Origin: a virus
Taxonomy: Duplodnaviria > Caudoviricetes
Direction: 5' to 3' (one strand)
Virus record (IMG/VR): IMGVR_UViG_3300042465_000911
Location: 1 to 60,984 of that record
Length of the DNA: 60,984 nt
The translations under genes and the position numbers were made by a program. Under the pieces are notes generated by a model. That model was not told where the DNA came from. It made no database searches and was given only the letters and a program-made list of their open reading frames with translations. Every line of letters starts with the position of its first letter. Position 1 is the stretch's first letter. Of this stretch, positions 25,399 to 44,026 are shown one piece after another.

Positions 25399-26937
25399 TC
25401 AGTAGTACGCCGCAGAGCGACGTTTAAAAAATCGTGGTTCATCTGCCTCATCCGTGTCTAGCGTGATAAAGCCGCCTTGTCTGAATCGAAGCAGTGCTTG
25501 GCTGGTCGTGTCCACATAGTCGTCGTGTTCGCCCACTGGGAAGGCCGCAACCTCCTCAATTACTTCACGCGCCCAGCGTGTGTCAGGTGCCCACACCATA
25601 CCAGAGGAGAACAAGTCAGCAATAGCCTGCACACGCACCATCTTATCGTTTCCACGGCTCGGTGTAAATTCTTGTACAGGGATGCCCATTGCCCTGAGTT
25701 CTTGGATCAACGGGCCACCTGCCGCCTTTTTCTCCACAATGAAGGCATCGGGTTGCCATTCCTTCCAGTGCTTGAAGGCGACTTGCTTGAGTTCTGGGAA
25801 TGGGATTCGGTCTTTGAAAGCGTCAAGGAGGATAAGCTGGGGCTTGTCGTTCTCCTCCTCGTTGTACCAGACCCCCCAAGTAGTACAGGCAGAATAGTCG
25901 GAGGTTGTTTTGGTTTCATGCGCCGTGTCCCAAGACTGGATGATGTACTCACAAGTGGGCGGTTCATCCCCCTCCCATATCCGCCAGTGCTTTCTGGAGA
26001 TGATCGCCGCCGTATCGCTGGTAGGCTGCTGCATGTACTGCGCGTTCCAGTAGCGGGGATCCATTGAGGACTTGGCAGACTTCAGCGCCTCGAGTGGCCA
26101 CTGCTCCGGCCAGAGGGATTTCTCTTTCTCCGTGTTCTCATGCAGGATGGCTGGAAGCTCCACAATCTCCCAGCGTGGGCTGTCGGGGTTGCTTACCTGA
26201 TACTGTATGAGTCTGCCGGTCAAGTCCAGTGGCCCCCAGCGCGTCATGATGACTATGATCGCACCGCCCGGCATCAGACGCTGCAACGGGCCGGTTTGAA
26301 ACCAACTCCACGCCGTGTCAAACGCTAGACGGCTGTTTGCTTTTACGTCTTGTTCCGAATGCGGGTCGTCGATAACAAAGAGATCAGCCCCGCGACCGGC
26401 AAGAGCACCACCAACGCCAGCCGCATAATACTGACCGCCAGCAGCAGTACTCCACTTTCCAGCAGCCTTCTGGTCATCTGCAACAAGTGTTTGCGGAAAA
26501 AGTTCATGGTACTGCTCATCATCCAGTAAGTTACGAACCCGCCGTCCAAAGTCTTCAGACAGCGACGCAGTGTGCGTCCCCATGATAATCTTCTTGTTGG
26601 GGTAGTTACCTAGAAAGAACGCGGGGAACAGGTAAGACGAGAACTCAGACTTACCCATACGGGGGGCAATGTTGATGATGACGCGCTTCTTTTTGCCTTC
26701 GATCACATCTTGGAATATCTTGGCCAGCTTCCTGTGATGTGGCCCAACCTTGAACCCGGGGTATACGTACTTGGAAAACTCAATCATGTTTGTACGACCG
26801 GCGTTGACGTTGTAGCGTTTCTCACGTTCTTCCAGCATTTCCATAAGCTCCACCTTCTCCGCCAAATTCAAGGTGGGGAGAGCTTTTTGGATTGCCTGAA
26901 TCTCAGTTGGACTCAGTGTCAGATCGTTCAGGTTCAT
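25399..26937 (-). CDS. terL: Terminase large subunit
   Basis: APRMGKS Walker A, IDDP Walker B, MTRW; nuclease SWDTA and HDDYVD. Confidence 0.95.
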   Translation of the reverse strand: MNLNDLTLSPTEIQAIQKALPTLNLAEKVELMEMLEEREKRYNVNAGRTNMIEFSKYVYPGFKVGPHHRKLAKIFQDVIEGKKKRVIINIAPRMGKSEFSSYLFPAFFLGNYPNKKIIMGTHTASLSEDFGRRVRNLLDDEQYHELFPQTLVADDQKAAGKWSTAAGGQYYAAGVGGALAGRGADLFVIDDPHSEQDVKANSRLAFDTAWSWFQTGPLQRLMPGGAIIVIMTRWGPLDLTGRLIQYQVSNPDSPRWEIVELPAILHENTEKEKSLWPEQWPLEALKSAKSSMDPRYWNAQYMQQPTSDTAAIISRKHWRIWEGDEPPTCEYIIQSWDTAHETKTTSDYSACTTWGVWYNEEENDKPQLILLDAFKDRIPFPELKQVAFKHWKEWQPDAFIVEKKAAGGPLIQELRAMGIPVQEFTPSRGNDKMVRVQAIADLFSSGMVWAPDTRWAREVIEEVAAFPVGEHDDYVDTTSQALLRFRQGGFITLDTDEADEPRFFKRRSAAYY

Positions 26938-27526
26938 CTGTATCTTGTGAGTGAGTACTAACTTCTTCTATGTCTTCGATTACTTCAGCGTCTTGCACGC
27001 CCATGAACTTGGCCAGCTTGTCTTTGAGCTTGCGGTCGATCTCCTCATCCGTGAGGTCAGTCTTCTTGACTTCAATCTTGTCGGTGAACAGGCCGACTTC
27101 GGTGACCTTACCCAAGAGCCCCAAGGCTTTCAGGCGGATGTTGGCGCTGGGGTTTTCGCATTCTTCCAACAGCTTGGCCACTGTGTAGCCACGAAGCTCT
27201 TTGGCCTGTTGGACAAACTCCCAGTCATAGGCGGTCAGCATCCCAACTAAGTGTTGCACAGCCGCTGGCGTTTTGATCTGAGACAGATGTTCGTGCGTGA
27301 TTTCGCTTGGTGCGGCAGATACTAAGTTAGTGAATGCACCCCGCGCTGCTTTGACTTCTGCTTGGCTGACCACGGTATCTGTGTCTGCCGCACCCAGACT
27401 CTTAAGCCAGTCGGTTGTCTTTACTTGGGCGTCGATCCTATCCGCCGGATGTTCTTTTTCAAGCGGCGTAGGTTTACCAGAGTGGGCAACCACTTCGGGT
27501 TCAAAATCAATAAGGTGTTCTAGCAT
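26903..27526 (-). CDS. terS: Terminase small subunit (probable)
   Basis: Immediately upstream of TerL; RLKALGLLGK...VGLF helix motif. Confidence 0.65.
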   Translation of the reverse strand: MLEHLIDFEPEVVAHSGKPTPLEKEHPADRIDAQVKTTDWLKSLGAADTDTVVSQAEVKAARGAFTNLVSAAPSEITHEHLSQIKTPAAVQHLVGMLTAYDWEFVQQAKELRGYTVAKLLEECENPSANIRLKALGLLGKVTEVGLFTDKIEVKKTDLTDEEIDRKLKDKLAKFMGVQDAEVIEDIEEVSTHSQDTDEPERSDTESN

Positions 27527-27541
27527 CGGCGCATAAGTCCC

Positions 27542-27570
27542 TTGTACCTGCGATGCGCGGAGTGTATACT
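27542..27570 (+). promoter_or_regulatory. Sigma70-type promoter of the candidate sRNA
   Basis: TTGTAC-17 nt-TATACT. Confidence 0.6.
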
Positions 27571-27576
27571 ATTTCC

Positions 27577-27697
27577 CAGTGATGCGGCAAGTTGCGAATT
27601 GGCCTTTGGCCAACCGCAACAGCAGTTGCCGATTGCTTCTCCTCGGTTGTTGGTTCGACCGTTCAGCCCCCCAGTCTCAAGCTGGGGGGTTTTTTTT
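27577..27697 (+). ncRNA. Candidate small RNA with an extended anti-RBS seed
   Basis: Promoter, long hairpin 27585-27631, unpaired ATTGCTTCTCCT, hairpin 27644-27661, terminator; no ATG-started ORF with an SD inside. Confidence 0.65.
27667..27697 (+). terminator. Intrinsic terminator ending the candidate sRNA
   Basis: CCCCCCAG-TCTCAAG-CTGGGGGG followed by T8. Confidence 0.85.
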
Positions 27698-27706
27698 ATT
27701 TGGCTT

Positions 27707-27722
27707 TGTCCAACGATTGACA
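27707..27722. promoter_or_regulatory. Palindromic operator-like site, copy 1
   Basis: TGTCCAACGATTGACA; related to 36071 and 44011. Confidence 0.5.
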
Positions 27723-27976
27723 CCAAATTTTATAAAATTTTTATAGTAATTGTAAAGTACTAAATTGAGTTGTAGAGAATGGTTGGGGAATAGTGTTCAG
27801 TGCTGAGCCACCCCAAGCTGCCTATATGGGTTGGTGGGGGATGGGTAGGGGTCGAAAGTAGTCGGTTTTCAGGCTTGAATAGTACCCTCGACCTCGTTTG
27901 GAAGGGGCTGTGTGGATAATGGCTTCAGCAAGTCGGGAATTGGTCTCGGCAAGCTATCAACTCAAAGGAAACAATC

Positions 27977-28399
27977 ATGACTAAAGCATCAAACACAAAC
28001 ACAGTTCACGCCGCACTCGATTCATGCTTCACGTATGCAGAGAAGATTGCCGCCTTGCAAGGGGTGTTCAAGGGCAAGACCGCCGAGGCGGTTCGTGCAT
28101 CCATCCTGCCCGATGTGGCGAGCTACCCGAAGTACTCTGTGCCCTTGGTTGCAGGTTCAGGCAAGGCAGAGGGCACGAAGGTACTCGACAAGGGGCACGC
28201 GAACTACGAAGCGTGCCGTAAGGCTTTGGGGCGTTTGGTCTCGGCTATCGTAGGCAAGGCATCAAGCGGTGCAAAGGAAGAAATCGAGATACCCGCAGAG
28301 GTTCTTGCCGCCGCCGCGAAGCTCGCCAAGCTGTGCGCTCAGTACGAGGACTCACGCAAGCTCGCCTCGACCGCTGTCGCTCAGGCTTTCGCCAAGTAA
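27977..28399 (+). CDS. First early-region hypothetical protein
   Basis: AAGGA SD; 140 aa Ala/Lys-rich. Confidence 0.8.
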   Translation: MTKASNTNTVHAALDSCFTYAEKIAALQGVFKGKTAEAVRASILPDVASYPKYSVPLVAGSGKAEGTKVLDKGHANYEACRKALGRLVSAIVGKASSGAKEEIEIPAEVLAAAAKLAKLCAQYEDSRKLASTAVAQAFAK

Positions 28400-28418
28400 C
28401 GGGGACACGATGTCCCCG
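28400..28418. repeat. GGGACA-N3-TGTCCC palindrome, copy 1
   Basis: CGGGGACA-CGA-TGTCCCCG directly after a stop codon. Confidence 0.85.
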
Positions 28419-28494
28419 ATGTGTTTTTTCCACGGCGGTGTAGACGGCTTGTCTTGCCGCTGTTTCTTTTCTTGTCCAACTAGGAGATTTTTCC

Positions 28495-28770
28495 ATGCCT
28501 TATCAAATTCAAACCTACACAATCCGACCTGACGGCGTTTGGGATTACGACCCGCCCATCGAGGTAGAGCACAAACACGCGCCGCTTTGGTGGCATGAAC
28601 GCGGCCTAAGTCAAACCGCCACAGGCTACGGCAAACGCATTGCCACCGCCACAATGATTAAGTACAAGGGCAAATGGCGCAGGGTTTACTGTTGCATCTA
28701 CTCGAATGTAGGCACCTGCTATATCGGCAAGCTATCCGACCGCCTGATTGTTTCAGGCTACCCAGAATAA
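28495..28770 (+). CDS. Hypothetical early protein
   Basis: AGGAG SD; TATGYG...WRRVY pattern. Confidence 0.75.
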   Translation: MPYQIQTYTIRPDGVWDYDPPIEVEHKHAPLWWHERGLSQTATGYGKRIATATMIKYKGKWRRVYCCIYSNVGTCYIGKLSDRLIVSGYPE

Positions 28771-28781
28771 GGAGAACCACC

Positions 28782-28982
28782 ATGAACCGCAACAAGTACA
28801 CACAGCACAGCAAAATAAAGATTGATACCCTCAAGCGACTGCGTGAGATACGCGATGAGATAGTCGAACGCCTACCCGAGGGCAAGGATAAGAAAGCCTT
28901 GCAAGCCAAGGCACGCCTACGCACAGACCTCGATGAGTGGAACGCCGTGAAGCGTACCTGCACACAAATGAGGTTGCTCTGA
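28782..28982 (+). CDS. Hypothetical early protein
   Basis: AAGGAGAA SD before ATG at 28782. Confidence 0.7.
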   Translation: MNRNKYTQHSKIKIDTLKRLREIRDEIVERLPEGKDKKALQAKARLRTDLDEWNAVKRTCTQMRLL

Positions 28983-28990
28983 CTGATGAA

Positions 28991-29009
28991 CGGGGACACA
29001 ATGTCCCCG
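28991..29009. repeat. GGGACA-N3-TGTCCC palindrome, copy 2
   Basis: CGGGGACA-CAA-TGTCCCCG. Confidence 0.85.
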
Positions 29010-29039
29010 ATGTCACAAAAATGGGTAAAATCTTTCGGT

Positions 29040-29325
29040 TCCATCGTTTTACCCACTATCCTTGGAAGAAGACAGCGTTTAAGCCAGCAACCACGGGCAG
29101 TCAGCAAAAACTGTCCTATATATCTACTTAATTAAAATATATTTATATATAGGAGATTGTTTATATGTGCGTGCTCTCCGCCTCTCGGTTGACTTTGGTT
29201 TGTTTTAACCTTTGGCGCTTTCCCTGTTGCCAGTAGGTACTTTTACGGGACAGCTTTTTTAAAACCCAATACTGGCGTGGCTTGGCGACTGTCTTCACCC
29301 AAGGATATTTGTAAAAATCATGGAT
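29040..29325. other. Putative replication origin
   Basis: AT-rich core 29117-29151 within nested inverted repeats in a long non-coding gap. Confidence 0.45.
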
Positions 29326-29400
29326 AGTACAAAAAACAGAGCTATCTTTTTACTCAAAAGCAAGTAGAATCACGGATACTTTCACCACAAGGAGTCTTTC

Positions 29401-30168
29401 ATGAAAGAGTTGAAGTACCACATCAGCAACAAAGCGCATTTAGAAACGTATCTCGCCGCCGAGTACAGGAAGGGTGCGTCTGAAGAAACGCTCAAGTATT
29501 TGCGGCGTGAGGGCATGGATTACCTAGCCAAGCGCAAGTCAGAGAACGCAAGACGCAAGCAAGTGGAGCGTATGTGGGACGAACACATTTTACCGCTTCA
29601 AGCGGAAAAGAAACGCATCGTGGCATCCCTCGCCTACCCTACGCACAACCGCAACAACTCAGACCCAAGGCGCATAGCACTCAAGGCATACCTAAAAGTC
29701 ATCGACACTTTGTTGGGCAAGATGCGGCGAGAGGCAACCTGTGTGCCGTTCGATGACCGACCAACCATGACACCCATCGAGTACGCCAAGGCAAAGAACG
29801 TACCCAACAACGGCGAGCATTGGACAGACTTCGTGCCGACCCACATCAAGCAAAGGGTTTGTCAAATGTTTGACGACATACCCTACACACCAAAGGCAAG
29901 GCGCAAGATTCCGTTTGAGCGTGTCGTAGGTGTTGAGTTGCACGAGTTACAGAAAGACCGACTCATCAGGCGCACAGAGAAGGAGCTAGTCAGGTGCAAG
30001 CAAGATGCGCTGTTGAACCCAAGCGATGAAAAGCTACCCGAGCGCATCCAAAAGATTGAAGCCGCCCTTGCCGAGATAGACAAGCTCGAACCCAGCGAGT
30101 TTGTACCGACCACATGGCAGGGGTTGATGAGTAAGCACAGAAACATCATCAAAGATTGGGACGATTAA
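29401..30168 (+). CDS. Hypothetical 255-aa basic helical protein
   Basis: AAGGAG SD; long ORF. Confidence 0.8.
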   Translation: MKELKYHISNKAHLETYLAAEYRKGASEETLKYLRREGMDYLAKRKSENARRKQVERMWDEHILPLQAEKKRIVASLAYPTHNRNNSDPRRIALKAYLKVIDTLLGKMRREATCVPFDDRPTMTPIEYAKAKNVPNNGEHWTDFVPTHIKQRVCQMFDDIPYTPKARRKIPFERVVGVELHELQKDRLIRRTEKELVRCKQDALLNPSDEKLPERIQKIEAALAEIDKLEPSEFVPTTWQGLMSKHRNIIKDWDD

Positions 30169-31579: not shown

Positions 31580-32935
31580 ATGAAGACAAACTTCATATCG
31601 TTAGTTTTTGACCTTGCAACCATCCTGCGTGGTGGTGCTACCTACATGAGGTTCAACCCTGAGCAGAGGTACTACTACGAGTACCAAACCGCACCATGCC
31701 GTGACTGGCACGGCAGAGAGCAACGCAAGTATCCAATGCACCCCGCCGTGGAGAAAGCCTTGCAGTCAGAGTATCGACCGTACGACTGGCACTTGCTCAC
31801 TCTTGAGTGGCCGCACATATCCGAGGACAGCACACGCCTTGCATACACACGAGACGACAGAGCAGGTGAGGCAGACCGACAGACTGTCACGACTGTGGGC
31901 AAGTACTTGACGCGACACTTCCGCGATATGCCTGACCATGAGGTACGCAACCTCGTTGCGCTGTACTCAGCAGGTGAGTCGTGCAAGTTTGTATACACAA
32001 TGGCTGAGATGATTCATCACATCATGCGTGGGCCGACATCGTGCATAGGTGGTAGACCATTCGAGGTGCGTTGTGCTGACGGCGAGCGCCGACATCCCTA
32101 TCAGGTATACGACCCCAAGTATGGCTGGCACATGGCTGTGCGTATCGAGAACGACAACACAGTCGGTCGTGCGTTGTGTATGGCAGATGGTGACAGCAAG
32201 TACTTCGTGCGCTCATATCGCAAGACCGATGGCTACTCGCCAGCAGACGAGCGCCTTGAAGCGTGGCTTGAGTCGCAGGGCTATACCAAGCAGAGCTATT
32301 GGGAGTCAGACACACGGCTTGCGTACTATGCGGTAGATGGCGGCGAGATACTTGCGCCGTACCTTGACGGCGGTCATCAGTACGTGGATGTCTGCGGTAA
32401 TCACCTTGAGATTAGTAGTAGCGGTGAGTACGAGTGCTCAAACACTTGCGGCACAGCGCAAGAGGCAGGCGGCGACGACTGTGCTGACTGCGGCGACCGC
32501 ATCAGTGAGGGTGACGGCTACTGGGTCGGGCGGCATGAGGAGACTCATGTGTGCGAGTCTTGCTGTGACGGCTTCTACCACTATGCGTATGGTCGCAACG
32601 GCAACCAGTACTATGTGCATGAGAACAACGTGGCGTGTGTCGGTCGCGAGTACTACGATGTGGACTATCTGTCCGACAACAACATTGTCGAGCTTGAGGA
32701 CGGCGACTACGCAGAGATGGATGACTGCGTGATGATTGGTGACGACTGGTATCTGACTGATGACGACCGCATCTGCCGACCCGAGGACAGCGATGACTAC
32801 TACTTGACCGAGGACTGCTGGCAATGCGAGGAGTCAGGCAACTGGTACACAGACGACACCGCGTATGTAGAGGTAGACGGCAACAAGTACCATCCCGACC
32901 ACGCACCTGAACAAACAACAACCGAAGAGGAGTAA
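31580..32935 (+). CDS. Early protein with a PcfJ-like core (SC...GRAL...RxY...PYLD) and acidic Cys-rich C-terminus
   Basis: Motifs seen directly; CADC and CESC pairs; very Asp/Tyr-rich tail. Confidence 0.55.
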   Translation: MKTNFISLVFDLATILRGGATYMRFNPEQRYYYEYQTAPCRDWHGREQRKYPMHPAVEKALQSEYRPYDWHLLTLEWPHISEDSTRLAYTRDDRAGEADRQTVTTVGKYLTRHFRDMPDHEVRNLVALYSAGESCKFVYTMAEMIHHIMRGPTSCIGGRPFEVRCADGERRHPYQVYDPKYGWHMAVRIENDNTVGRALCMADGDSKYFVRSYRKTDGYSPADERLEAWLESQGYTKQSYWESDTRLAYYAVDGGEILAPYLDGGHQYVDVCGNHLEISSSGEYECSNTCGTAQEAGGDDCADCGDRISEGDGYWVGRHEETHVCESCCDGFYHYAYGRNGNQYYVHENNVACVGREYYDVDYLSDNNIVELEDGDYAEMDDCVMIGDDWYLTDDDRICRPEDSDDYYLTEDCWQCEESGNWYTDDTAYVEVDGNKYHPDHAPEQTTTEEE

Positions 32936-32938
32936 TCA

Positions 32939-34057
32939 ATGAATAAGAAATCAATCCTGTACAAGACCCTGACCCGTGCGCTGTCAGTCAAGCGACCACA
33001 CAACGGACGGGGCGTGGCTATGTTCACCGACTGGCTCGAAGCCCATGTGCCTACGCACTTGCAAGACCGCATCAGTTATGACGACACAGGTAACCTGCAC
33101 GTTGATGCGCGTGTCGATGCTACGCACCGCACTTTGTTTGTGGCGCACGTAGATACTGTGCATCGTGCCGAGGGTGCCAACAAGATACGCAAGACTGCTG
33201 GCAAGTGGTATGCCGATGGTGCGCCTCTCGGTGCGGACGATGGTGCTGGTGTAGCTATCCTCATGCACATGCTGTGCGGCGGTGTACCCGCATACTACGT
33301 GTTCACACAAGGTGAGGAGTGTGGTGGTATCGGTGCTCGTGCGTTGGCCAAGGACACAGCGTTGCTGTCTCAGTTCGACCGAGCCATCGCGTTCGACCGC
33401 CGTGGTATTGACAGCGTCATCACACACCAAGGGTACGGCAGATGTTGCTCTGACACATTCGCTCAAGCCTTGGCCGACTCGCTCTCATCAGGCAACGTGC
33501 TCATGTACTTGGGTGACGACTCAGGTATCTACACAGATACCGCAGAGTTTGTCGATGTCATACCTGAATGCACCAACATCAGCGTTGGGTATATGTATGA
33601 GCACAGCGACAAAGAAGAACTCAACATCCACCACTTCACCGCCTTGGCTGATGCCGTGCTTACCCTGCCGTGGGATACCCTGCCAACCGACCGCGACCCT
33701 GCGGTCGTAGAGAGCAAGTGGGATGCGTATGACCACGCTGGCTACGCCGTGCCATCAGGTGCGTGGACTAAGGACTGGTGGAAGGACTACGACAAACAGC
33801 CGCCAGTTATGGACAACACCTACGAGAGCATGGTAGAGGATGCGCTGTATGACGCGATGCTCGGTGTGTACACAGGGCTGATTGACCTGATAGCCGAGTG
33901 CGTGTACCCCGATGACCCTGCGCTTGCCAAACGTAGCATACGCAGAAGTGCGTTGGATGATGACTTGTTGCTCGATGCGATAACCGCATTGCGTGATGGG
34001 GAAGACCCCGAGAACATCTTGTTGTGCCTGTATGACAGCGCGTACACAGACATCTGA
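32939..34057 (+). CDS. Zinc peptidase, M28/M20 family
   Basis: AHVDTV, GADDGAG, GEECG, FDRRG, TD and EH metal-ligand motifs. Confidence 0.85.
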   Translation: MNKKSILYKTLTRALSVKRPHNGRGVAMFTDWLEAHVPTHLQDRISYDDTGNLHVDARVDATHRTLFVAHVDTVHRAEGANKIRKTAGKWYADGAPLGADDGAGVAILMHMLCGGVPAYYVFTQGEECGGIGARALAKDTALLSQFDRAIAFDRRGIDSVITHQGYGRCCSDTFAQALADSLSSGNVLMYLGDDSGIYTDTAEFVDVIPECTNISVGYMYEHSDKEELNIHHFTALADAVLTLPWDTLPTDRDPAVVESKWDAYDHAGYAVPSGAWTKDWWKDYDKQPPVMDNTYESMVEDALYDAMLGVYTGLIDLIAECVYPDDPALAKRSIRRSALDDDLLLDAITALRDGEDPENILLCLYDSAYTDI

Positions 34058-34097: not shown

Positions 34098-34117
34098 AAA
34101 CGTAAAGGAGAAGCAAA

Positions 34118-34489
34118 ATGAAAACAGAAAAAGAATGGACAACAGAAGCAGGGCTAAAAGCTCAGGTAGTTGCAACACCGATGGGGCATCGCTGTGGGTA
34201 TGTAAGTGTGCCAGCCGAACACCCAATGTATGAGAAGCACTATGACGATGTTGCTGTTGATGTGCATGGTGGGCTGACGTATGCGGATAGGCACGATGGT
34301 TCGTGGTGGCTTGGTTATGACTGCGCTCATTTGGGGGATGCCAGAGACCCTGAGTTGATGAGCGATAAATATAAAGAGGCGTTTTCTCATTGGTCTAACT
34401 TCACTGAAGGCACTATCAGGACGTTGGACTTCTGCGTGGCGGAGTGTGAGTCTTTGGCGAAACAACTTATGAAAGGAGAAGCAAAATGA
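34118..34489 (+). CDS. Conserved phage protein (CGYV...VHGGLTY...GYDCAH)
   Basis: Motif pattern; strong SD. Confidence 0.75.
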   Translation: MKTEKEWTTEAGLKAQVVATPMGHRCGYVSVPAEHPMYEKHYDDVAVDVHGGLTYADRHDGSWWLGYDCAHLGDARDPELMSDKYKEAFSHWSNFTEGTIRTLDFCVAECESLAKQLMKGEAK

Positions 34490-34719
34490 TATTAGAAAAC
34501 TACGAGAAACTTGTTATGCGTACAGACACCCTTGAGGACGACTCAGTTGTTGTCAACTTTGATGTGTACAACAAGAATTACAAAGAGGTCACAAAAGATG
34601 CAGGCTATGTACACATACGCCAAGAGTTGGAGTTCTTCAATGTGGTTGTTTACAACTGCGATGGGGATGTGTTGAGTGAGGTAAATGTTCCATTTAAATT
34701 TAAGGAGATAGACCAATGA
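34486..34719 (+). CDS. Hypothetical early protein
   Basis: Coupled overlap with SD. Confidence 0.65.
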   Translation: MILENYEKLVMRTDTLEDDSVVVNFDVYNKNYKEVTKDAGYVHIRQELEFFNVVVYNCDGDVLSEVNVPFKFKEIDQ

Positions 34720-36070: not shown

Positions 36071-36109
36071 TGTCTAACACTTGACAACCTCGCCCTTGCG
36101 AGGTACATT
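36071..36109 (+). promoter_or_regulatory. Consensus sigma70 promoter overlapped by operator-like site copy 2
   Basis: TTGACA(36081)-17 nt-TACATT; TGTCTAACACTTGACA overlaps the -35; inverted repeat in the spacer. Confidence 0.8.
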
Positions 36110-36129: not shown

Positions 36130-36645
36130 ATGCCAGACATGAAAACTGCACTGAGTGGAATACTCAGCGAATGGGAATTAGATAATCAACAACAGGAGAA
36201 GCAAGTGCAAAAAGCACCATACGTACCACACTTTAAAGTCACCAACAACGTGACACGCGCAACATTCGATTACGTCAAGAGCAACCCGCTCCAATCATGC
36301 AAAGAAATCTGCGTAGCGTTGGAGAAGGACGGCTACAAACCGTCCTCTATCGGTTCATTGCTCACGCAGTTCGTTAAGAACGGCTTGTGCGTAAGAGATG
36401 CAAACAATAACTACACAGCGATAGCCCACGAGTACACGCCCATAAAGGTACGCAAGCAACTCAAAGCCAAGCAAGCCAAGCAAGTCATAGAGAAAGCCAA
36501 AGCTACACGAGGCCAAGGCATCGCCGCTCTCAGTCCGCAGCCTATCGTGAAGACTGCGTGGGATGTTGAGACAGTCATCAACAACATTGGCTTGAAGCAA
36601 GCACACGAGTTGTACAGAGAGCTACACACATACTTCGGAGGTTGA
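36130..36645 (+). CDS. Winged-helix-like DNA-binding protein
   Basis: TFDYVKSNP...EI...L......SIGSLLTQFVKNG pattern; possible second start GTG at 36205. Confidence 0.55.
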   Translation: MPDMKTALSGILSEWELDNQQQEKQVQKAPYVPHFKVTNNVTRATFDYVKSNPLQSCKEICVALEKDGYKPSSIGSLLTQFVKNGLCVRDANNNYTAIAHEYTPIKVRKQLKAKQAKQVIEKAKATRGQGIAALSPQPIVKTAWDVETVINNIGLKQAHELYRELHTYFGG

Positions 36646-42404: not shown

Positions 42405-42417
42405 ACGGAGAAGCAAC

Positions 42418-43977
42418 TTGGAAATCCTTGAAGACAAGGCACTAATATTTAGAACTAGAAACCCAGAAAAGTACAGCATCATTCCTAAACACAAAGTCAT
42501 CGAACGTGATGACGGTGGGTACGATGTCGCTGTCTACTGGGGACTAGATGAATGTAGGGTGCTACGCAACCTCGGCGTGAAAGATGTGCCCTCGCCAATC
42601 ACACGCAAGTACAAGTGGCCCGGTCGTTACAAACCTATGGCGCATCAGATGGAGACTGCCGCCTTCTTGACCATGCACCGCAAGGCGTTTGTGTTCTCAG
42701 AACCTGGCACTGGCAAGACGCTCTCTGCACTATGGGCGGCTGACTACCTGATGCAACGTGGTGAGGTGCGCAGGTGTTTGATCTTGTGTCCACTATCTAT
42801 CATGCAGTCTGCATGGCTGGCAGACTTGAGCAACAGCATCATCCATCGCTCGGCCATCGTCGCTCACCATACGCAGGCTAGTCGCCGCATCGAGATGATT
42901 CAACAAGACTACGAGTTCGTCATCGCTAACTACGATGGCTTGAACTTGATAGCTGACGAGGTTAAGAACGATGGTAGGTTCGACCTTGTGATCGTCGATG
43001 AGGCCAACGCATACAAGACGGTGACGACCAAGCGTTGGAAGGCATTGAAGTCCATCCTCACACCCAAGACCCACGTATGGATGATGACTGGTACACCTGC
43101 ATCGCAGTCACCAGCAGATGCCTACGGCTTGGCCAAGATCGTCAACCCCGAGGGCGTACCCAACTTCTACACATCGTGGCGCGACAAAGTGATGAACAAG
43201 GTCACTCTATACAAGTGGGCGGCAAAGCACAACGCCGCTGACCTAGTGCATGAAGCACTGCAACCAGCAATACGCTTTAGCAAAGCGCAGTGTCTTGACT
43301 TACCCCCAGTGCTGACCACCACACGTGAGGTTCCCCTCACACCACAGCAAGCCAAGTATTACAACCTGCTCAAAGACAGGATGCTGGTGCAAGCCGCAGG
43401 CGAAACAATCAGCGCAGTCAACGCTGCCGCTGGTGTGAGTAAGCTGTTGCAGATAAGTTGTGGCGCTGTGTACACCGACGAGAAAGAAGTGATTGAGTTT
43501 GATGCCGCCCCCCGTCTTGGTGTGCTGGAAGAAATCTTGGATGAGACTACACGCAAGGTCATCATCTTTGCGTTGTTCAGGTCAAGCATCGACACCATAC
43601 AGACGCACCTGACCAAGAAGAACATTGCCAACGAGTGCATACACGGCGGTATCACACCCAGTAAACGTGCCGACATCATCCACCGCTTCCAACATGAACC
43701 TGACCCTCGCGTATTGGTTATGCAACCGCAGGCTACGGCGCACGGCATCACGTTGACTGCGGCTGACACGGTAGTTTTCTTTGGCCCACTGATGAGCGTG
43801 GAGCAGTACATCCAGTGCATTGCACGGGCTGACCGCAAGGGACAGAACTCCGACAAGGTGACTGTCATCCACATCCAAGGCTCACCGATTGAGCGCAAGA
43901 TGTTCAAAGCATTGGAGGGCAAGGTAAGTGATAACTCACTTCTTACCCAAATGTTTGAGATAGAAATAAATTCATGA
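42418..43977 (+). CDS. SNF2-family helicase
   Basis: PGTGKT, DEAN, TGTP, GITLT, Q..AR..R.GQ. Confidence 0.9.
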   Translation: MEILEDKALIFRTRNPEKYSIIPKHKVIERDDGGYDVAVYWGLDECRVLRNLGVKDVPSPITRKYKWPGRYKPMAHQMETAAFLTMHRKAFVFSEPGTGKTLSALWAADYLMQRGEVRRCLILCPLSIMQSAWLADLSNSIIHRSAIVAHHTQASRRIEMIQQDYEFVIANYDGLNLIADEVKNDGRFDLVIVDEANAYKTVTTKRWKALKSILTPKTHVWMMTGTPASQSPADAYGLAKIVNPEGVPNFYTSWRDKVMNKVTLYKWAAKHNAADLVHEALQPAIRFSKAQCLDLPPVLTTTREVPLTPQQAKYYNLLKDRMLVQAAGETISAVNAAAGVSKLLQISCGAVYTDEKEVIEFDAAPRLGVLEEILDETTRKVIIFALFRSSIDTIQTHLTKKNIANECIHGGITPSKRADIIHRFQHEPDPRVLVMQPQATAHGITLTAADTVVFFGPLMSVEQYIQCIARADRKGQNSDKVTVIHIQGSPIERKMFKALEGKVSDNSLLTQMFEIEINS

Positions 43978-43983
43978 AAGGAG

Positions 43984-44026
43984 TTGCAAAACAAACGCAA
44001 ACGTGTAAACTGTCCAACCTTAGACA
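43984..44026 (+). promoter_or_regulatory. Probable promoter with operator-like site copy 3
   Basis: TTGCAA-16 nt-TAAACT followed by TGTCCAACCTTAGACA. Confidence 0.55.

Follow-up and report, generated by a model that had tools for sequence, protein, structure and literature searches.

What does the non-coding DNA between the two gene arms of this phage genome encode? We analysed a window of 60,984 bases that is a whole phage record (IMG/VR record IMGVR_UViG_3300042465_000911), in which a 450-nucleotide (nt) gap separates a late arm on the minus strand from an early arm on the plus strand. Within the gap sits a unit at 27542–27697 (+) that had been proposed to encode a small RNA (sRNA) complementary to the ribosome-binding sites (RBSs) of the phage's own early genes. 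We find that the unit is conserved among related phages, that its plus strand is the functional one, that the structure of its RNA is maintained, and that it complements early leaders specifically. These properties suggest, plausibly though still tentatively, a trans-acting sRNA directed against translation-initiation regions (TIRs), which would damp or shut off the translation of early genes.

Conservation and structure of the unit upstream of terS

The unit opens with a –35-like hexamer, TTGTAC (27542–27547), which is followed after a 17-nt spacer by the –10 hexamer TATACT (27565–27570). The predicted sRNA (27577–27697) is ∼120 nt long, its 5′ end being placed from the position of the –10 hexamer and its 3′ end being the U-run of the terminator. 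Stem-loop 1 (27578–27637) is closed by a G-U-rich lowest stem, in which the 5′ end of the RNA pairs with the AUUGCU of the seed; in the minimum-energy fold this pairing is weak and includes two G-U pairs. The extended seed GAUUGCUUCUCCUCGG (27631–27646) has a core, UCUCCU (27638–27643), that is predicted to be single-stranded. Next come a 6-bp stem-loop 2 (27644–27661; CGGUUG-UUGGUU-CGACCG) and an intrinsic terminator with its U-run (27665–27697), for which the terminator scan gave a stem at 27665–27691 with 11 pairs, 7 of them G-C, a loop of 5 and a T-run. Thus, the TTGTAC-17-TATACT promoter-like site, the long hairpin, the 6-bp hairpin and the strong terminator of the original prediction are all present at 27542–27697 on the plus strand. 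Its description of ATTGCTTCTCCT as unpaired holds for UCUCCU, which is predicted to be free, and fails for the AUUGCU part, which is weakly paired with the RNA 5′ end.

To ask whether related phages carry an sRNA upstream of terS, as suggested when the unit was first described, we collected terS relatives from IMG/VR. At least 595 were confirmed, and the best 80 of the 595 loci were kept for comparison. Four of the 80 were dropped, having less than 200 nt upstream of terS, which left 77 testable sequences (76 loci plus the window; 62 of them distinct). The same unit lies upstream of terS in all 77. In the shared architecture, exactly 17 nt separate TTGnnn from TAnAnT; next come a 5′ hairpin that varies, (U)UGCUU(U)CUCC and a second hairpin, and the unit closes with a G+C hairpin and 6 T or more. 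Among the 62 distinct sequences, the TTG and the 17-nt spacer are invariant, and every one fits the –10 pattern TAnAnT (TATACT 28, TACACT 29, TAAACT 2, TACAGT 2, TATAGT 1). The terminator hairpin is followed by at least 6 T in 77/77 sequences, and the predicted sRNAs of the relatives measure 80–130 nt.

Folds and alignments were made for a set of 60 sequences, which omits one locus (L019) of the 77. The invariant or near-invariant columns of the alignment are those of the seed and of the G and T runs of the terminator. Between the hairpins, nearly every one of the 60 folds leaves the linker (U)(U)CUCCU(U) unpaired. A stem-loop 2 of at least 4 bp forms in 60/60 folds, and its 36 distinct sequences show several Watson-Crick pair types at each stem position; judged from these predicted folds, the second hairpin covaries. 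Pairs were counted on per-sequence folds and no covariance model was built, since neither MAFFT alignment (A1, A2) was consistent with the structure; from A1, RNAalifold recovered 3 terminator pairs only.

Stem-loop 1 varies in length among the relatives. Among close relatives (loci L002, L004, L008 and others), an insertion of ∼31 nt (27592–27622 in the window), with a GGCC-loop-GGCC tip, is present in some and absent from others, and a GGCC-tipped insertion occurs at the matching place in more distant clades as well. It looks like a mini-hairpin that has been repeatedly gained or lost.

Several lines of evidence bear on which strand is functional. In the window, the plus-strand RNA (27577–27697) folds with an energy of –57.0 kcal/mol (z –5.95; none of 200 shuffles as good), and its minus-strand counterpart folds more weakly (–47.3, z –3.99). 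The plus-strand RNA also folds better in 56 of 60 distinct sequences, with a mean of –40.5 versus –32.6 kcal/mol (Wilcoxon p = 4e-11). G-U pairs account for 261 of 1790 predicted pairs on the plus strand versus 61 of 1544 on the minus strand. Because a G-U pair becomes a C-A mismatch on the opposite strand, this asymmetry indicates that the structure under selection is that of the plus-strand RNA. A U-run follows the terminator hairpin on the plus strand only; read on the minus strand, the hairpin has an A-run before it and no U-run after it.

We also considered whether the minus strand encodes a small protein or an upstream open reading frame (uORF). Read on that strand, the seed is a perfect early-type RBS, and in the window the frame from the ATC that follows it ends at a TAG overlapping the terS ATG. 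However, neither start codon, frame, stop nor peptide is conserved, and we reject this candidate. No ATG, GTG or TTG is found 4–10 nt past the minus-strand GGAG in 37 of the 62 distinct sequences. Where a start is present, the open reading frames (ORFs) have 8–30 codons or run on, their frames differ, their peptides are unrelated, and their stops, counted from the terS ATG, are scattered between –79 and positions past +280. The length steps of stem-loop 1 are not multiples of three, and the 68-aa minus-strand frame of the window had no match in PHROG. Taken together, the sequence comparisons indicate a conserved, independent, non-coding unit on the plus strand.

Neither blastn with 26900–28400 nor tblastn with terS gave matches among GenBank phages, in which the terL relatives found are at most 53% identical (DSL-LC04 and the pelagiphages HTVC027P/023P). 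Two of these, DSL-LC04 and HTVC023P, which are the nearest cultured relatives by terL (∼50% identical), have no divergent junction and no seed motif, and their genes upstream of terL are collinear. An exact 23-mer of the seed had no match in the viral contig set. Scanning metagenome contigs with a 29-mer gave 12 contigs of 1.8–68 kb, none of them bounded by the ends of the sRNA.

Complementarity to early-gene leaders

Genes were called separately for each arm, in place of noisy strand-blind calling, and the gene starts are heuristic. Most early leaders read AAGGAGAA(A/G)CAA-ATG, and late leaders have AAGGA, GAGG or GGAGT. The motif GGAGAAGCAA occurs exactly 6 times in the window versus 0.08 expected. 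Five copies are on the plus strand directly before starts, at 34107, 34475, 36195 (in-frame GTG at 36205), 40938 and 42407, and the sixth is the sRNA locus itself, read on the minus strand. Allowing up to one mismatch, AGGAGAAGCAA has 12 matches versus 1.11 expected. The leader matches listed in the original prediction, all before plus-strand starts, are real.

We next calculated duplex energies between the seed GAUUGCUUCUCCUCGG and positions –22 to +4 of each start, for 44 early and 43 late leaders. The mean is –12.07 kcal/mol for early leaders versus –8.44 for late ones, and energies of –12 or below are reached by 22/44 early versus 4/43 late leaders. As a control, CUCC was held fixed and the 12 flanking seed bases were shuffled. 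For the early leaders of the window, 1 of 1000 such seeds reached the real mean, versus 563 of 1000 for the late ones; the complementarity exceeds chance and, as claimed earlier, extends beyond the Shine-Dalgarno (SD) core. Applied to ten genomes (the window plus nine complete or near-complete relatives), the same test gave 0–6 of 500 for early versus 92–442 of 500 for late leaders in 10/10. When only leaders containing GGAG were compared, early ones still paired better than late ones in all ten genomes (p from 0.014 to 3e-5). The proposed comparison of pairing energies with late and shuffled controls thus shows enrichment for early leaders and none for late ones, in the window and in its nine relatives. 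Two outgroup phages that lack the element showed no enrichment for the window seed, which was reached in 100/300 and 157/300 shuffles.

The same contrast was seen when the full structured sRNA was cofolded with each leader. The net change in energy (ddG) is –9.35 for early versus –5.16 for late leaders (p = 3e-5), and the 12 best cofold targets are all early genes. The best-scoring predicted target is the leader of gene 32939–34057 (CAACAACCGAAGAGGAG..., at 32905–32941; duplex –22.3, ddG –21.1). Exact 11-mers precede the ATGs of gene 34118–34489 (AGGAGAAGCAA; leader and ATG at 34106–34120, duplex –18.2 kcal/mol) and of gene 34486–34719 (34474–34488; duplex –18.1, ddG –15.0). A fourth predicted target is the leader and TTG start (42406–42420) of the SNF2-type helicase gene, 42418–43977 (duplex –17.0, ddG –15.2); all four lie on the plus strand. 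In 24 of the 62 distinct sRNAs, CAU stands beside the seed and would extend the pairing to the AUG of GGAGAAAGCAA-AUG leaders. By these predicted energies, the seed is complementary to the TIRs of the early arm beyond what a generic SD would give, and late leaders are not matched in this way.

One of the leader matches bears on gene calling. At 36194–36207 (+), 75 nt inside the ORF called from 36130, an in-frame GTG comes directly after an exact AGGAGAAGCAA. That gene may start at 36205, or it may have two starts.

A candidate regulator of early translation and its rivals

We infer that the unit is transcribed, that its RNA pairs with early mRNAs in vivo and represses them, and that the timing of early expression is shaped as a result. 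In the mechanism we propose, host RNA polymerase would make the sRNA from the TTG-17-TAnAnT promoter, which lies back-to-back with the late terS mRNA start, and transcription would stop at the intrinsic terminator, with 10 nt left between it and the early arm's operator/promoter region. The free CUCCU would serve as an anti-SD look-alike and, with the adjacent UUGCUU, would complement the leader AGGAG(A)AAGCAA(AUG) shared by many early-arm genes. UUGCUU would be held by the weak G-U-rich stem with the RNA's own 5′ end while CUCCU nucleates on the SD of an early mRNA; pairing would then invade that stem and spread to UUGCUU (and CAU, if present) up to the start codon. With the segment from SD through AUG covered, the 30S subunit would be excluded. 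Since the promoter looks host-type, the sRNA would accumulate alongside its targets, and early proteins would be made as a pulse and then turned off. Late mRNAs would escape because they have other SDs and because the terS leader, of 15–16 nt, lacks the motif. A role in dormancy, also raised originally, or in lysogeny finds no support; the tyrosine integrase family PF00589 had no match in the window genome, in a search whose controls matched in 14/14 genomes and which did not cover other integrase types.

If early leaders are the targets, seeds and leaders might be expected to change together, and the original prediction had suggested looking for this. The seeds fall into three types, S (GCUUCUCC), L (GCUUUCUCC) and A (ACUUCUCC). 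Genomes with the seed GCUUUCUCC have leaders almost all of the GGAGAAAGCA type, with GGAGAAGCA versus GGAGAAAGCA at 1 versus 30 over four complete genomes and at 0 versus 16 in partial loci; counted genome by genome, GGAGAAGC:GGAGAAAGC is 0:4, 0:6, 1:5 and 0:15. The corresponding ratios in six S-type genomes are 4:1, 3:2, 5:3, 8:2, 2:3 and 1:5. Among partial loci (53 non-redundant), those with L-type seeds have 0 S-type and 20 L-type leaders, and A-type loci have too little sequence to count. A double-centred statistic pairing each seed with its own leaders beat 20000 of 20000 permutations, the genomes being related to one another. L-type seeds are thus accompanied by L-type leaders as the idea would have it, but S-type seeds have mixed leaders.

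A number of observations weigh against an sRNA that represses early genes. Two of the six S-type genomes are discordant (G008, with 2 S- and 3 L-type leaders, and G005, with 1 and 5), and S-type seeds in the partial loci also have mixed leaders (19 S-type, 10 L-type). G005 (locus L070) is a recent S-type offshoot within an L-type clade, with leaders that are still L-type. A terS tree of 62 rows needs only about 4 changes of seed type, and about 3–4 seed changes are independent, so the permutation result overstates the independence of the cases. The apparent co-variation is partial and confounded by phylogeny; we regard it as suggestive, not established. Early and late leaders are told apart just as well by a generic anti-SD motif (p = 5e-5), which implies that part of the early/late contrast reflects stronger early SDs and that the contrast alone proves little. 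The L-type seed scores 6/300 on the leaders of one phage without the element, so that part of the match must be generic A-rich context after the SD. The first five early ORFs (27977–30168) have no extended match, and the minimum-energy fold engages half of the extended seed in pairs. With a –35 hexamer that agrees with the consensus at 3 of 6 positions, the promoter was not called by the sigma-70 scan, and its conserved TTG and TAnAnT may belong in part to the divergent late start at 27541/2. A sigma-70-type promoter would moreover make the repressor together with its targets, which calls for the logic of a pulse or timer rather than that of a simple switch. Finally, no transcript of the sRNA was seen among the metatranscriptomes.

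Transcripts were sought in four lake/freshwater metatranscriptome runs, which hold small shares of 27300–28000; the contigs are 90–99% identical to the window, come from relatives of its phage, and do not show strand. In all four runs, terS contigs run from 27300 and stop at 27541 or 27542, and in two the library adapter follows directly. This discrete RNA end, a short distance upstream of the terS start codon (27526–27524, minus strand; the two together span 27524–27542), probably marks where the late terS mRNA begins, with a leader of 15–16 nt. It adjoins the –35 hexamer of the sRNA, and no sigma-70-like –10 hexamer lies at the right distance on the minus strand. If 27541/2 is a primary start, the late mRNA would contain no sRNA antisense, and the two promoters would overlap back-to-back. 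A putative late-promoter motif repeated from 27551–27570 was looked for, and this locus is its only exact copy in the window (7 matches versus 5.9 expected). No contig from the four runs covers 27564–28000, a result that is uninformative, as contigs drop small RNAs and the runs hold only relatives.

Which other explanations could account for the unit? The sRNA may be real but have host mRNAs, or SD-led translation generally, as its main targets. It would then be an exposed anti-SD mimic, used for host shut-off or to sequester a host factor, and the match to early leaders would be a by-product of a common strong-SD context. The free part of the seed is just CUCCU, and both the generic anti-SD motif and the outgroup score of the L-type seed noted above are what this explanation would predict. 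Bacterial double-hairpin sRNAs with unpaired CU-rich stretches inhibit E. coli growth, according to the portion of PMC5688073 that concerns them. However, the complementarity of the flanks beyond CUCC is specific to each phage's own early leaders in 10/10 genomes, with none for late leaders, and the window seed is not enriched on the two outgroup phages. We therefore think a host-directed or global role unlikely, if still worth bearing in mind.

Less probable again is a cis-acting role, in which the unit is a promoter-proximal, terminated leader of the plus-strand arm. Regulated read-through of the terminator would feed the early/middle genes, and the released RNA would be a by-product. Such a leader would resemble the short terminated transcript that precedes the late operon of lambda, or a put-like antitermination RNA. 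The unit is indeed oriented as the plus-strand arm is, its strong terminator lies 280 nt upstream of the first ORF of that arm, and the two stem-loops before the terminator are conserved. On the other hand, the conserved palindrome and AT-rich promoter-like block that follow the terminator, with two further copies in the plus-strand arm, suggest independent promoters, and no antiterminator gene was identified, although none was specifically searched for. Also left unexplained would be the invariant single-stranded seed and its match to distant leaders. We consider this explanation improbable.

Very improbable, finally, is a functional minus strand, with GGAGAAGCAA as a decoy or standby SD or a uORF RBS in a long terS leader, or with the plus-strand RNA merely cis-antisense to such a leader: the perfect early-type RBS, an ATG or TTG at the right distance in 25 of 62 distinct relatives, the window frame ending at the terS ATG and promoter-like sites at 27756–27727 and 27776–27749 (–) would fit, but the 37 of 62 without a start codon, the differing ORF lengths, frames and stops, the stem-loop 1 length changes, the G-U asymmetry, the fold energies, and an RNA end suggesting that terS mRNA starts downstream of the element all argue against it, and a cis-antisense role would not require an invariant seed.

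Known systems and neighbouring features

The known means by which phages time their genes are mainly proteins (sigma factors, antiterminators, RegA and RegB), and most known phage sRNAs have one phage mRNA, or host genes, as targets. A repressive sRNA at this locus would belong, as to mechanism, to a known kind, that of RBS-occluding sRNAs and phage antisense RNAs such as c4. Occlusion of the RBS is the standard mechanism of sRNA repression in the relevant part of PMC5861419. Like a canonical trans-encoded sRNA, the unit combines a promoter of its own, recognised by its conservation, with an intrinsic terminator, and its RNA has a conserved single-stranded seed that is predicted to pair across SD and start codon; it differs in that the seed is the anti-SD core itself and the predicted regulon is the phage's own early genes with one leader. 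The c4 RNA of P1/P7 pairs around an RBS and blocks translation, its complementary sequences being thought to lie in loops (PMC12197685, in the section on c4). However, c4 acts on the single ant mRNA in temperate-phage immunity, whereas the gene here stands on its own, no integrase was detected in its genome, and its predicted targets are a dozen or more leaders over 20 kb.

The closest parallels in logic are two T4 proteins. According to PMC3014915, the GGAG of early SDs is cut by RegB during the first minute; the extended consensus of the site is GG*AGRAYARAA, and most middle mRNAs and all late ones are left intact. RegA, in the same account, contends with the ribosome for about 30 initiation regions. 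Both are phage-encoded and made early, and both inactivate many early mRNAs through their TIRs, and the early leaders here resemble the RegB consensus in having GGAG with an A-rich extension. RegA and RegB are proteins, not RNA, and the resemblance is one of logic only, with no homology implied. The Pfam families REGB_T4 and Translat_reg had no match in the window, in searches run without a positive control.

An Rfam scan of 26500–29000 gave sub-threshold matches only. The best alignments to 27626–27697 are with RF02278, the Betaproteobacteria toxic sRNA (20.5 bits versus a gathering threshold of 50), and RF02837, anti-hemB of Burkholderia (22.1 bits versus 49.5), and the unit is a member of neither family. 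Both resemble it: they are short, leave a CU-rich stretch unpaired, form one or two hairpins and carry an intrinsic terminator. But they are chromosomal rather than phage-borne and lack the long 5′ stem-loop. A stand-alone phage sRNA whose seed complements the leader of a whole early gene set has no Rfam family, and none is described in the parts of the literature that our survey covered.

A more specific version of the repressor hypothesis is possible, though we hold it with greater reserve than the general one. In a lytic-type lineage, one sRNA might act as a regulon-wide translational off-switch for early genes that share the ‘barcode’ leader AGGAG(A)AAGCAA-AUG. The anti-SD would be the toehold and UUGCUU, kept in the weak G-U stem, would confer specificity and tell early mRNAs from host and late ones, making the sRNA an RNA-only counterpart of RegA/RegB. 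Because its promoter overlaps the late terS start, sRNA and late transcription would be mutually exclusive. If the repressor hypothesis is true, these phages time a whole gene class with a compact RNA, and the early genes' retention of an extended, near-identical leader is explained. The family concerned is large, as the number of terS relatives indicates, and belongs to abundant uncultured freshwater phages, in whose genomes the element is a clean marker of the early/late junction.

As to the genome at large, the late arm on the minus strand begins with terS (26903–27526), terL and portal, and wraps around to the gene for a 2186-aa polyvalent protein. The plus-strand arm (27977–49182) encodes a family-A DNA polymerase, the SNF2-type helicase, a PD-(D/E)XK nuclease, a DUF927 primase-like protein and many small ORFs. 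The search for tRNA and tmRNA genes found none. One related locus, L121, is a 1.7-kb contig with a terS 90% identical to that of the window, binned with an uncultured Limnohabitans metagenome-assembled genome (MAG). MAG contigs gave 5 hits of mixed taxonomy, this one being the closest and the other 4 having unrelated taxonomy, and as a hint to the host they are too weak to use.

The DNA between the terminator and the first early ORF has features of its own. A palindrome, TGTCCAACGATTGACA (27707–27722, +), lies 10 nt past the sRNA and is followed by an AT-rich block, and both are kept in relatives. The 16-bp palindromic motif, TGTCYAACNNTWGACA, has 3 exact plus-strand copies (27707–27722, 36071–36086 and 44011–44026), the latter two upstream of the plus-strand genes at 36130 and 44047, and 9 matches with up to two mismatches versus 1.41 expected. 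The motif probably serves the early/middle arm as an operator or promoter element, and its recurrence there, together with the AT-rich block after the terminator, suggests that the plus-strand arm probably has regulated promoters of its own. A 19-nt stretch of stem-loop 1 (GCAAGTTGCGAATTGGCCT, 27587–27605) recurs at 27928–27946 (+), just before the first early ORF, with 16/19 identical positions. Between the palindrome and that ORF, at ∼27775–27800, a block reading GAACACTATTCCCCA on the minus strand is kept in many relatives despite divergent surroundings, and could be a further regulatory site or a piece of the early 5′ untranslated region.

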